From: Escherichia coli
GTDB lineage: Bacteria > Pseudomonadota > Gammaproteobacteria > Enterobacterales > Enterobacteriaceae
Reading direction: 5' to 3' (one strand)
Assembly (NCBI RefSeq): GCF_050920415.1
Contig: NZ_CP169309.1
Length of the DNA stretch: 64,000 nucleotides
Within the stretch, counting starts at the first letter, position 1, and every line of letters begins with the position of its first letter. A program made the position numbers and the translations under genes. Of the stretch, positions 15,223 to 17,414 are shown piece after piece. The notes beneath the pieces were generated by a model. It searched no databases and was not told where the DNA came from. It was given only the letters and a program-made list of their open reading frames with translations.

Positions 15223-16374
15223 ATGTCACTTGTCACCGATCTACCCGCTATTTTCGATCAGTTCTCTGAAGCTCGCCAGAAAGGCTTTCTCACCGTCATG
15301 GATCTCAAGGAGCGCGGCATTCCGCTGGTTGGCACCTACTGCACCTTTATGCCGCAAGAGATCCCGATGGCAGCCGGCGCGGTTGTGGTTTCGCTCTGTT
15401 CCACCTCTGATGAAACCATTGAAGAAGCCGAGAAAGATCTGCCGCGCAACCTCTGCCCACTGATTAAAAGCAGCTATGGCTTCGGCAAAACCGATAAATG
15501 CCCCTATTTCTACTTTTCTGATCTGGTGGTCGGTGAAACCACCTGCGACGGCAAAAAGAAAATGTATGAATACATGGCGGAGTTTAAGCCCGTGCATGTG
15601 ATGCAATTGCCCAACAGCGTTAAGGACGATGCCTCGCGTGCATTATGGAAAGCAGAAATGCTGCGCTTGCAAAAAACGGTAGAAGAACGTTTTGGGCACG
15701 AGATTAGCGAAGATGCTCTGCGCGATGCCATTGCGCTGAAAAACCGCGAACGTCGCGCACTGGCCAATTTTTATCATCTTGGGCAGTTAAATCCTCCAGC
15801 GCTTAGCGGCAGCGACATTCTGAAAGTGGTCTACGGCGCAACCTTCCGGTTCGATAAAGAGGCGTTGGTTGACGAACTGGATGCAATGACCGCCCGCGTT
15901 CGTCAGCAGTGGGAAGAAGGCCAGCGACTGGACCCGCGTCCACGCATTTTAATCACCGGCTGCCCAATTGGCGGCGCAGCAGAGAAAGTGGTGCGCGCGA
16001 TTGAAGAGAATGGCGGCTGGGTTGTCGGTTATGAAAACTGCACCGGGGCGAAAGCGACCGAGCAATGCGTGGCGGAAACGGGCGATGTCTACGACGCGCT
16101 GGCGGATAAATATCTGGCGATTGGCTGCTCCTGTGTTTCGCCGAACGATCAGCGCCTGCAAATGCTCAGCCAGATGGTTGAAGAATATCAGGTCGATGGC
16201 GTAGTTGATGTGATTTTGCAGGCGTGCCATACCTACGCGGTGGAATCGCTGGCGATTAAACGTCATGTGCGTCAGCAGCACAACATTCCTTATATCGCTA
16301 TTGAAACAGACTACTCCACCTCAGATGTCGGGCAGCTCAGCACCCGTGTCGCGGCCTTTATTGAGATGCTGTAA
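15223..16374 (+). CDS. yjiM: 2-hydroxyacyl-CoA dehydratase-family protein (YjiM)
   Basis: 383 aa from MSLVTDL; HgdB-like dehydratase family by recognition. Confidence 0.8.
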   Translation: MSLVTDLPAIFDQFSEARQKGFLTVMDLKERGIPLVGTYCTFMPQEIPMAAGAVVVSLCSTSDETIEEAEKDLPRNLCPLIKSSYGFGKTDKCPYFYFSDLVVGETTCDGKKKMYEYMAEFKPVHVMQLPNSVKDDASRALWKAEMLRLQKTVEERFGHEISEDALRDAIALKNRERRALANFYHLGQLNPPALSGSDILKVVYGATFRFDKEALVDELDAMTARVRQQWEEGQRLDPRPRILITGCPIGGAAEKVVRAIEENGGWVVGYENCTGAKATEQCVAETGDVYDALADKYLAIGCSCVSPNDQRLQMLSQMVEEYQVDGVVDVILQACHTYAVESLAIKRHVRQQHNIPYIAIETDYSTSDVGQLSTRVAAFIEML

Positions 16375-16377
16375 GGA

Positions 16378-17151
16378 GTGGCAGTGGCATATTCGATTGG
16401 CATTGATTCCGGCTCAACCGCCACCAAAGGGATCTTACTGGCAGACGGCGTGATTACGCGCCGTTTCCTCGTTCCAACACCCTTTCGCCCGGCAACAGCA
16501 ATTACTGAAGCCTGGGAAACTCTGCGCGAAGGGTTAGAAACAACGCCGTTTCTGACGCTCACCGGCTACGGGCGGCAACTGGTGGATTTTGCCGATAAAC
16601 AGGTGACGGAAATCTCCTGTCACGGGCTGGGCGCTCGGTTTCTTGCGCCAGCAACGCGCGCGGTAATTGACATCGGCGGTCAGGACAGCAAAGTGATTCA
16701 GCTTGATGATGACGGTAACCTGTGCGATTTCCTGATGAATGACAAATGCGCGGCGGGCACCGGGCGTTTCCTGGAGGTGATCTCGCGCACGCTTGGCACC
16801 AACGTCGAACAGCTCGACAGCATAACGGAAAATATCACGCCGCACGCCATCACGAGTATGTGTACAGTGTTTGCCGAATCAGAAGTGATCAGCCTGCGCT
16901 CAGCGGGCGTCGCGCCAGAAGCGATTCTCGCTGGAGTGATTAACGCGATGGCGCGGCGGAGTGCCAATTTCATTGCTCGTCTCTCCTGTGAAGCGCCGAT
17001 TCTGTTTACTGGTGGCGTTAGTCATTGCCAGACGTTTGCCCGGATGTTGGAAACTCACCTGGGAATGCCGGTAAATACCCATCCTGATGCGCAATTTGCT
17101 GGCGCAATTGGCGCAGCGGTAATTGGTCAACGAGTGAGAAAACGCCGATGA
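16378..17151 (+). CDS. yjiL: BadF/BadG/BcrA/BcrD-type ATPase, putative activator of 2-hydroxyacyl-CoA dehydratase (YjiL)
   Basis: 257 aa; N-terminal actin-fold ATPase motif IGIDSGSTATK; begins 4 nt after the yjiM stop. Confidence 0.8.
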   Translation: MAVAYSIGIDSGSTATKGILLADGVITRRFLVPTPFRPATAITEAWETLREGLETTPFLTLTGYGRQLVDFADKQVTEISCHGLGARFLAPATRAVIDIGGQDSKVIQLDDDGNLCDFLMNDKCAAGTGRFLEVISRTLGTNVEQLDSITENITPHAITSMCTVFAESEVISLRSAGVAPEAILAGVINAMARRSANFIARLSCEAPILFTGGVSHCQTFARMLETHLGMPVNTHPDAQFAGAIGAAVIGQRVRKRR

Positions 17152-17414
17152 AAGAGTTTTTATTTTTATTTCACTCCACGGTCGGCGTCATACAAACCCG
17201 CAAGGCGTTGCAGGCAGCGGGCATGACTTTTCGCGTCAGCGATATTCCCCGTGATTTACGCGGCGGCTGCGGGTTATGCATTTGGCTGACCTGTCTGCCC
17301 GGCGAGGAAATACAATGGGTGATCCCTGGGCAGACCGAAGCGATATATTGCCAACAGGGCAGCAACTGGCAGTGCGTGGTGCATTACGATTCAGAAGCGT
17401 CAACCAGGCAATAA
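17148..17414 (+). CDS. Small Cys-containing hypothetical protein, translationally coupled to yjiL
   Basis: 88-aa ORF whose ATG overlaps the yjiL stop (ATGA); contains GGCGLCIWLTC. Confidence 0.4.
   Translation: MKEFLFLFHSTVGVIQTRKALQAAGMTFRVSDIPRDLRGGCGLCIWLTCLPGEEIQWVIPGQTEAIYCQQGSNWQCVVHYDSEASTRQ

Follow-up and report, generated by a model that had tools for sequence, protein, structure and literature searches.

The DNA analysed here is a 64,000-nt window of Escherichia coli (assembly GCF_050920415.1, contig NZ_CP169309.1), in which the yjiM, yjiL and ytiA genes lie in tandem. A preliminary description of the locus had reported a yjiM-yjiL pair followed by an 88-aa open reading frame (ORF) that starts in an ATGA overlap with the yjiL stop and contains a GGCGLC motif, and each of these elements is present, as set out in the following lines:

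15223..16374, + strand: yjiM, predicted class-II double-cubane cluster protein (DCCP) of 383 aa, HGD-D superfamily; ATG at 15223, TAA at 16374
16384..17151, + strand: yjiL, predicted ASKHA-type ATP-dependent reductase/activase resembling the DCCP reductase (DCCP-R), 255 aa; TGA at 17149-17151
17148..17414, + strand: ytiA-type gene, DUF3343 or 'putative Se/S carrier', 88 aa here and 85 aa in K-12-type strains
17148..17151, + strand: ATGA in which the yjiL stop and the ytiA start overlap, as seen in the sequence itself; ytiA ATG at 17148-17150
17157..17324, + strand: DUF3343 domain (residues 4-59), the constrained part of YtiA according to the Pfam match and the ratio of nonsynonymous to synonymous substitution rates (dN/dS)
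17268..17270, + strand: codon of Cys41, the sole family-wide invariant cysteine and presumed sulfur- or selenium (S/Se)-carrying residue
17277..17279, + strand: codon of Cys44, second cysteine of GGCGLC, invariant in a 19-sequence Enterobacteriaceae set, not family-wide
17359..17414, + strand: strain-specific ytiA C-terminal tail, delimited by the megablast homology boundary and by comparison with the annotation of a K-12-type strain

The GGCGLC motif occupies residues 39-44 of YtiA, and 9 nt separate the yjiM stop from the yjiL start. The longest yjiL ORF begins at GTG 16378, but the start annotated in RefSeq, an in-frame GTG at 16384, is more plausible because an AGGAG lies 6 nt before it.

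YjiM matches Pfam PF06050 (E=3.6e-122) and, with its residues 14-383 covering the whole model, NCBIfam NF040772 double_cubane (531.2 bits for a cut-off of 350); its RefSeq product name is 'double-cubane-cluster-containing anaerobic reductase'. Its best PDB matches are 6ENO and 7YYL, both of the DCCP of Carboxydothermus hydrogenoformans (E=5e-75, residues 26-383). When the seven-cysteine criterion for DCCPs was judged by residue-by-residue alignment to 6ENO, C40, C59, C78, C93, C108, C273, C302, C304 and C335 of YjiM were each found opposite a cysteine of DCCP, all DCCP cysteines within the aligned region being conserved; the published seven-cysteine spacing, applied as a literal regular expression, gave no match in YjiM, whose spacings are X18, X18, X29, X164, X30 and X30. 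YjiL in turn matches Pfam PF01869 (E=9e-76) and TIGR00241 (362.5 bits, cut-off 125), as well as the structures 4EHT (HadI), 1HUX (HgdC) and 7YYL_E (DCCP-R), with E values from 1e-52 to 6e-47, and its motifs at the two cluster-bridging cysteines, LMNDKCAAGTGRFL and CTVFAESEVIS, align with HadI and are conserved with it.

Both DCCP and dehydratase systems work by the ATP-driven injection of a low-potential electron. The E. coli pair belongs to the same superfamily as HadBC/HadI, HgdAB/HgdC and FldBC/FldI, with the Pfam domains HGD-D and BcrAD_BadFG in common, and YjiL is as similar to the 2-hydroxyacyl-CoA dehydratase activators HadI and HgdC (E=1e-52) as to DCCP-R. YjiM, on the contrary, scores below the cut-offs of the dehydratase equivalogs (HadB, 21 bits for a cut-off of 750; HadC, 96 bits for 700), and while dehydratases are alpha/beta heterodimers with one [4Fe-4S] cluster per subunit, yjiM is a single HGD-D gene encoding the additional double-cubane cysteines, with no alpha/beta pair at the locus in E. 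coli, Klebsiella, Kosakonia or the other gammaproteobacterial cases. Neither a CoA-transferase nor a dehydrogenase partner appears among the recurrent neighbours of the YjiM orthologue loci. Thus, the dehydratase-like character earlier attributed to the pair holds at the level of the benzoyl-CoA reductase/2-hydroxyacyl-CoA dehydratase superfamily and not for YjiM itself, which is predicted to be a class-II double-cubane [8Fe-9S] cluster protein, with YjiL as its matching ATP-dependent reductase; YjiM is therefore better described as a DCCP than as a dehydratase, with predicted cluster and ATP-dependent activity.

The C. hydrogenoformans system (CHY_0487/CHY_0488; 6ENO, 7YYL) is likewise a two-gene module of a catalytic protein and an ATPase; YjiL matches its DCCP-R (7YYL_E) with E=6e-47, and YjiM passes NF040772 with its predicted cluster cysteines conserved. 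YjiM had already been named a class-II DCCP carrying the cysteine motif, and YjiL its reductase, by Jeoung and Dobbek, who also noted that YjiM, unlike the C. hydrogenoformans protein, is devoid of the N-terminal helices by which the substrate channel is closed and might thus accept a larger substrate. What DCCPs do physiologically has been an open question since 2018, and their function is called unknown in the 2022 and 2025 literature, in agreement with the earlier statement that the substrate of YjiM/YjiL is unknown.

The 88-aa ORF was taken in the preliminary description as a small frame of its own, and it is indeed a real gene, although not an unrecognised one, since it corresponds to the RefSeq coding sequence WP_000657672.1, 'DUF3343 domain-containing protein' in this strain. 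Its counterpart in a K-12-type strain is named ytiA (WP_000657675.1, 85 aa), with 'putative Se/S carrier protein' as the product name in some RefSeq records. As a sequence feature ytiA is thus ordinary, being already annotated and assigned to a named Pfam family, and the gene, the DUF3343 family and the DCCP assignment of YjiM are all already known; the modest addition made here consists in showing that the overlap is conserved throughout the sampled Gammaproteobacteria, in discarding the CxxC idea and in sharpening the S/Se hypothesis for DCCPs.

Residues 4-59 of YtiA match positions 2-57 (of 69) of Pfam PF11823, Se_S_carrier, with 48.4 bits (gathering cut-off 25, E=6.4e-13), and a protein search returned 132 YtiA homologues with 56-97% identity in Escherichia, Citrobacter, Klebsiella, Raoultella, Kosakonia, Phytobacter and Atlantibacter. 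In an alignment of 19 enteric sequences, conservation begins at the first codon and extends over the N-terminal 60 residues, with DIPRxLRGGCGLC invariant, and the last 25 residues are free. Median pairwise dN/dS values, taken over 35 species pairs with unsaturated dS, are 0.06 for yjiM, 0.08 for yjiL and 0.21 for ytiA, and the value falls to 0.15 for ytiA codons 1-62, unlike the C-terminal tail, which evolves freely. Variability by codon position is highest at the third (0.40), followed by the first (0.23) and the second (0.18). The examination of conservation, synteny and coding signature that had been proposed was thus carried out and came out in favour of the ORF: with homologues, a conserved operon position, dN/dS ~0.2 and third-position bias, it is both conserved and endowed with a coding signature, and ytiA is a real gene under purifying selection.

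A one-genome-per-species scan with a DCCP alignment provided 80 YjiM orthologues (57-96% identity), whose loci are the best 80 of at least 582 DCCP-like loci and all belong to the YjiM-like clade; 25 are gammaproteobacterial and 55 are from Firmicutes. The gammaproteobacterial loci come from Escherichia, Citrobacter, Klebsiella, Raoultella, Superficieibacter, Trabulsiella, Cedecea, Intestinirhabdus, Kosakonia, Kluyvera, Hafnia, Morganella, Aeromonas and one metagenome-assembled 'Proteobacteria bacterium', and all 25 show the order yjiM, yjiL, DUF3343, with the yjiL stop overlapping the ytiA start; this overlap measures 4 nt (ATGA or GTGA) in 20 loci, 1 nt in four and 11 nt in one. Their flanks vary from locus to locus. 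The order HGD-D, BcrAD, Se_S_carrier with a stop/start overlap was also seen in Klebsiella, Kosakonia and the metagenomic contig L007. The 88-aa ORF is therefore, as had been suspected, a genuine third cistron of a yjiM-yjiL-ytiA operon. Since the overlap is present in all 25 loci, translational coupling would be a conserved feature, and the overlap points to a coupled and roughly stoichiometric translation of ytiA with yjiL.

Some singular cases were also observed among these loci. In L007 the three genes diverge at very unequal rates, YjiM being 81% identical to the E. coli protein and the overlapping DUF3343 protein (P0133) just 35%. In Citrobacter koseri NCTC10786 (L016:7162-7930) yjiL appears to be broken, by a frameshift or a sequencing error, into a pair of overlapping ORFs (7162-7365, 7358-7930), with yjiM and ytiA intact. 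Apparent Rosetta-stone fusions of YjiL and YtiA (P0125, P0139, P0145, P0162 and others) were discarded, since they are read-throughs across frameshifts, joined by garbled linkers, and not natural fusions.

When 1.84 billion representative proteins were searched with a profile, the YtiA family was extended to members with as little as 20% identity. Across 35 family sequences (20-65% identity) the invariant residues are F8, P34 and C41, with G42 nearly so, and C41 is still conserved in the DCCP-linked Firmicute members. The second cysteine of the motif behaves differently: C44 is replaced in Aeromonas (CGLA), Hafnia (CGLS) and Morganella (CGLG), all of which keep the operon position, and its position is also replaced in many distant family members. 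Because of these replacements, the conserved element, as judged from the alignments, is one cysteine in a PxP-x6-CG context and not a CxxC site. YtiA, with 88 aa, no partner domain and C41 as its single invariant cysteine, fits the description of DUF3343 proteins as small stand-alone proteins of 80-100 aa with one highly conserved cysteine (Lin et al. 2015). In the same profile search, P0155, P0168, P0183, P0185 and P0211 (407-807 aa) were matched in 5-11 separate stretches each, and these could be DUF3343-like repeat proteins or low-complexity matches. Structure matches of YtiA to LolB, DAF and MoaD were at chance level (E ~0.002 or higher) and were rejected as non-homologous.

Outside the enterics, eight DUF3343 contexts were inspected: one is a DCCP triad, four have a class-V aminotransferase neighbour (accompanied by YedE in one and by TusA in two), one has a TusA/DsrE neighbour and two are uninformative. 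The three aminotransferases scanned (L011, L096, L098) belong to TIGR01977, the family closest to the selenocysteine lyase SclA. Among the Firmicute loci, Acetobacterium (A. paludosum, L060:6001-9960; A. fimetarium, L063) shows yjiM, yjiL and a TIGR01977 SclA-like gene that overlaps the yjiL end, this trio facing a convergent pair formed by the gene of a 203-aa TusA-domain protein and DUF3343. Tyzzerella displays the order LysR, SclA-like, DUF3343, activase, DCCP. In Dorea (L077:2191-7152, L086:1938-7152) two paralogous DCCP genes stand back to back: one encodes a 383-aa YjiM orthologue and has no activase gene of its own, and the other encodes a DCCP of 440-453 aa in an operon with the order SclA-like, DCCP (440 aa; NF040772, 512 bits), DUF3343, activase, so that DUF3343 stands between the enzyme and its ATPase. 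In Acetoanaerobium pronyense (L043:9196-10488, - strand) a gene for a 430-aa protein, with DUF3343 fused to the N-terminus of HydE, the radical-SAM maturase of the [FeFe]-hydrogenase H-cluster (TIGR03956, 303 bits), adjoins HydF ~1.3 kb downstream of the yjiM-yjiL pair, which links the DUF3343 domain to metallocluster biosynthesis. As far as gene order can tell, the links in Acetobacterium, Tyzzerella and Dorea, counted as four different gene orders, tie DUF3343 and an S/Se-mobilising pyridoxal phosphate (PLP) enzyme to DCCP/activase genes. Within ~5 kb or less of the YjiM orthologues there are also class I/II aminotransferases (11 loci), ATPases of ABC transporters (17 loci) and a PLP enzyme of cysteine/methionine metabolism (seven loci, mostly Citrobacter), and these recurrent neighbours may bear on the substrate of YjiM.

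TusA/SirA-type proteins are small and single-domain, with one essential cysteine through which sulfur passes from a cysteine desulfurase to a partner enzyme. YtiA is likewise small with one key cysteine (predicted), and TusA genes directly adjoin DUF3343 in several loci; nevertheless, no sequence relationship between the two is detectable, and Pfam assigns YtiA solely to PF11823. The fact that DUF3343 co-occurs with TusA instead of replacing it suggests that DUF3343 is a relay step distinct from that of TusA. Regarding the DUF3343 family itself, proposed as an S/Se chaperone by Lin et al. (2015), YtiA shares with it the PF11823 match, the size and the single conserved cysteine, and its relatives adjoin SclA-like desulfurases, TusA/YedF and YedE as described there; ytiA itself belongs to a DCCP operon, and its locus contains no gene for a desulfurase, YedE or YedF. 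The 'carrier' name is a hypothesis drawn from gene neighbourhood (Lin et al. 2015), and the STRING table of the same work lists, for Slackia, an activase and subunits of the HgdCoA-dehydratase type among the DUF3343 partners.

The association is nonetheless far from general among DCCP loci. Within ~6 kb flanks, a DUF3343 gene was found in 7 of the 55 Firmicute YjiM-orthologue loci and was absent in the other 48; no conserved small ORF follows yjiL in these other loci, whose downstream ORFs are heterogeneous in size and strand. Similarly, no DUF3343 gene was found near class-I DCCP genes in either of two loci, those of Carboxydothermus islandicus, whose DCCP is 97% identical to the characterised one, and Desulfosporosinus youngiae, both formed by the two core genes and thus differing from the gammaproteobacterial operon with its third gene. 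Because of its absence from most Firmicute YjiM loci and from both class-I loci, YtiA is not an obligate third subunit and would rather be an accessory, which agrees poorly with the third-subunit role envisaged before, the solved DCCP:DCCP-R complex being also a two-component one. YtiA would be, in these terms, a lineage-specific accessory of the DCCP system, neither a core subunit nor a CxxC redox or metal protein.

Regarding its role, the best available reading, which we consider about as likely to be right as wrong, is that YtiA is a Cys41-based S/Se relay protein serving YjiM/YjiL. YtiA would act via its single invariant Cys41, which may hold a persulfide, a perselenide or some other S/Se species bound to the thiol; the donor would be a cysteine desulfurase or an enzyme of the selenocysteine lyase type, encoded at another E. 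coli locus. S/Se would then be exchanged, in one direction or the other, between YtiA and the cluster site of YjiM, energised by YjiL with ATP, the exchange serving either catalysis, with S/Se in substrate or product, or cluster maturation. Such a relay is supported by (i) Cys41 being the sole invariant cysteine, (ii) the SclA-like, TusA and YedE neighbours of DUF3343, (iii) the Firmicute links to DCCP, (iv) the chaperone proposal and Slackia partners of Lin et al. (2015), and (v) the concentration of NF040772 proteins in SelD-containing genomes (Haft 2022); moreover, relatives in the YjiM enzyme family carry [4Fe-5S] clusters, and one of them is a sulfur-transferring desulfidase. Several points weigh against it. 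C. hydrogenoformans DCCP made in E. coli is active in vitro with DCCP-R alone, so that the carrier is dispensable for electron transfer or acetylene reduction. The sparse distribution of DUF3343 among Firmicute and class-I DCCP loci counts on the same side, as does the E. coli yjiM-yjiL-ytiA locus with no desulfurase gene. Gene neighbourhood shows association, not mechanism or transfer direction, and the Firmicute examples are few, several of them being from related genera, and not fully independent. No homologue was retrieved among solved structures when searched by sequence with YtiA alone or with the 35-sequence profile, and no paper on E. coli ytiA was found in the literature, where the matches to 'ytiA' in titles and abstracts concern the Bacillus L31 paralogue.

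Other roles may be envisaged for YtiA. It might be a non-shuttling accessory or maturation factor of YjiM/YjiL, involved in the assembly or repair of the [8Fe-9S] cluster (e.g. as a source of the ninth, bridging sulfide) or in the insertion of the [4Fe-4S] cluster of YjiL. The yjiL stop/start overlap kept throughout the 25 loci, the fusion of DUF3343 to HydE next to HydF in Acetoanaerobium and the NifS-type or SclA-like desulfurases near several DCCP loci would all fit, as would a selenium-bridged cofactor, listed as a formal possibility by Haft (2022). Most DCCP loci, however, lack a DUF3343 gene nearby, and C. hydrogenoformans DCCP gains its cluster in E. coli without a partner of its own, though the host ytiA may have been present; this role, which overlaps heavily with the relay and differs from it solely in the use given to S/Se, is considered unlikely. 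Rather less support can be given to YtiA being independent of YjiM/YjiL, for instance by delivering S/Se in general, to tRNA thiolation or to SelD, with a gene that simply shares the yjiM/yjiL promoter in Gammaproteobacteria. This would account for DUF3343 being mostly found without DCCP, alongside a desulfurase, TusA or YedE, and for YtiA evolving much faster than YjiM, as the L007 pair exemplifies. Against such independence, all 25 species, from Escherichia to Aeromonas, have preserved the overlap although their flanking genes changed, and DUF3343 has been recruited independently into Firmicute DCCP/activase clusters, including a position between both genes in Dorea; we therefore regard independence as decidedly unlikely.

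It is highly improbable that GGCGLC is the functional centre of YtiA and that this small protein works through a CxxC site in redox reactions or metal binding, either as a thiol-disulfide partner or as a Fe-S or metal-binding electron donor to YjiL; a possible metal- or redox-related role had first been suggested from the motif. CGLC is certainly invariant in the 19-sequence Enterobacteriaceae set, CGxC recurs in many distant members, and YjiL, as is generally known for archerases, requires an electron donor. Nonetheless, the second cysteine is lost in Aeromonas, Hafnia and Morganella at the same operon position as well as in many other family members, leaving C41 as the only invariant one, a lone invariant cysteine is insufficient to bind a cluster or a metal, and the family-wide partners are sulfur-transfer proteins (desulfurase, TusA, YedE) and not redox proteins. 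As for the 88-aa ORF being a chance frame or an annotation artefact that is not translated, the probability is negligible: the literature provided no proteomic or ribosome-profiling detection of YtiA (YjiM is reported by proteomics in a preprint), but the Pfam match above the gathering threshold, the N-terminus conserved from residue 1, dN/dS ~0.2 with third-position bias and homologues that share the invariant residues even when only 20% identical are at odds with it, and conservation has effectively refuted it already.

A bolder and quite improbable reading would make YjiM/YjiL/YtiA an ATP-driven, very-low-potential reductase for carrier-bound sulfur or selenium. The system might reduce a perselenide or persulfide held by Cys41 of YtiA and so release selenide or sulfide to supply the SelD-dependent use of selenium, or might install or exchange the bridging S/Se atom of the double-cubane cluster. 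This reading rests on the DUF3343, SclA-like, TusA and YedF neighbourhoods of DCCP genes and on the gammaproteobacterial overlap. If true, it would provide DCCPs with the physiological role that they have so far lacked and would explain the near-confinement of NF040772 proteins to SelD-containing genomes, reported for 955 of 970 of them by Haft (2022), in whose preprint a full-text search for DUF3343 found no occurrence of the term. In any case, E. coli carries a DCCP system in a genetically tractable host, and the carrier linkage together with the co-occurrence with SelD turns the vague question of the DCCP substrate into concrete S/Se-handling experiments.

Within E. coli the locus is nearly universal. 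The region 15100-17700 is 100% identical to that of strain MFDS1022581 and 95-99% identical to that of nearly all complete E. coli genomes; it was matched in 5,386 of 5,426 complete genomes (>99%), 5,368 of which cover at least 80% of the query. A promoter/terminator scan of 14900-17900 gave sites no more numerous than in shuffled sequence, with none upstream of yjiM and none downstream of ytiA. The megablast homology to most E. coli genomes ends at query position 2259, that is, window position 17358, close to the 3' end of ytiA. An island at 17359-19900 begins inside ytiA and replaces its last ~18 codons, giving rise to the 88-aa form with its own tail in place of the 85-aa K-12 one. Between ytiA and yjiK, this island contains a gene at 17727-19784 (+ strand) for a 685-aa pentapeptide-repeat protein, annotated as the type III secretion system effector EspX6 in O157:H7 genomes, and the EspX6-like segment occurs in 639 of the 5,426 complete genomes, mostly with 90-95% identity. 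On the other side, upstream of mdtM, a gene for an Rpn-family recombination-promoting nuclease (~11120-12076, - strand; L001:2021-2977) is intact here, while the annotation of the K-12-type strain LIM gives it as a pseudogene interrupted by an internal stop.

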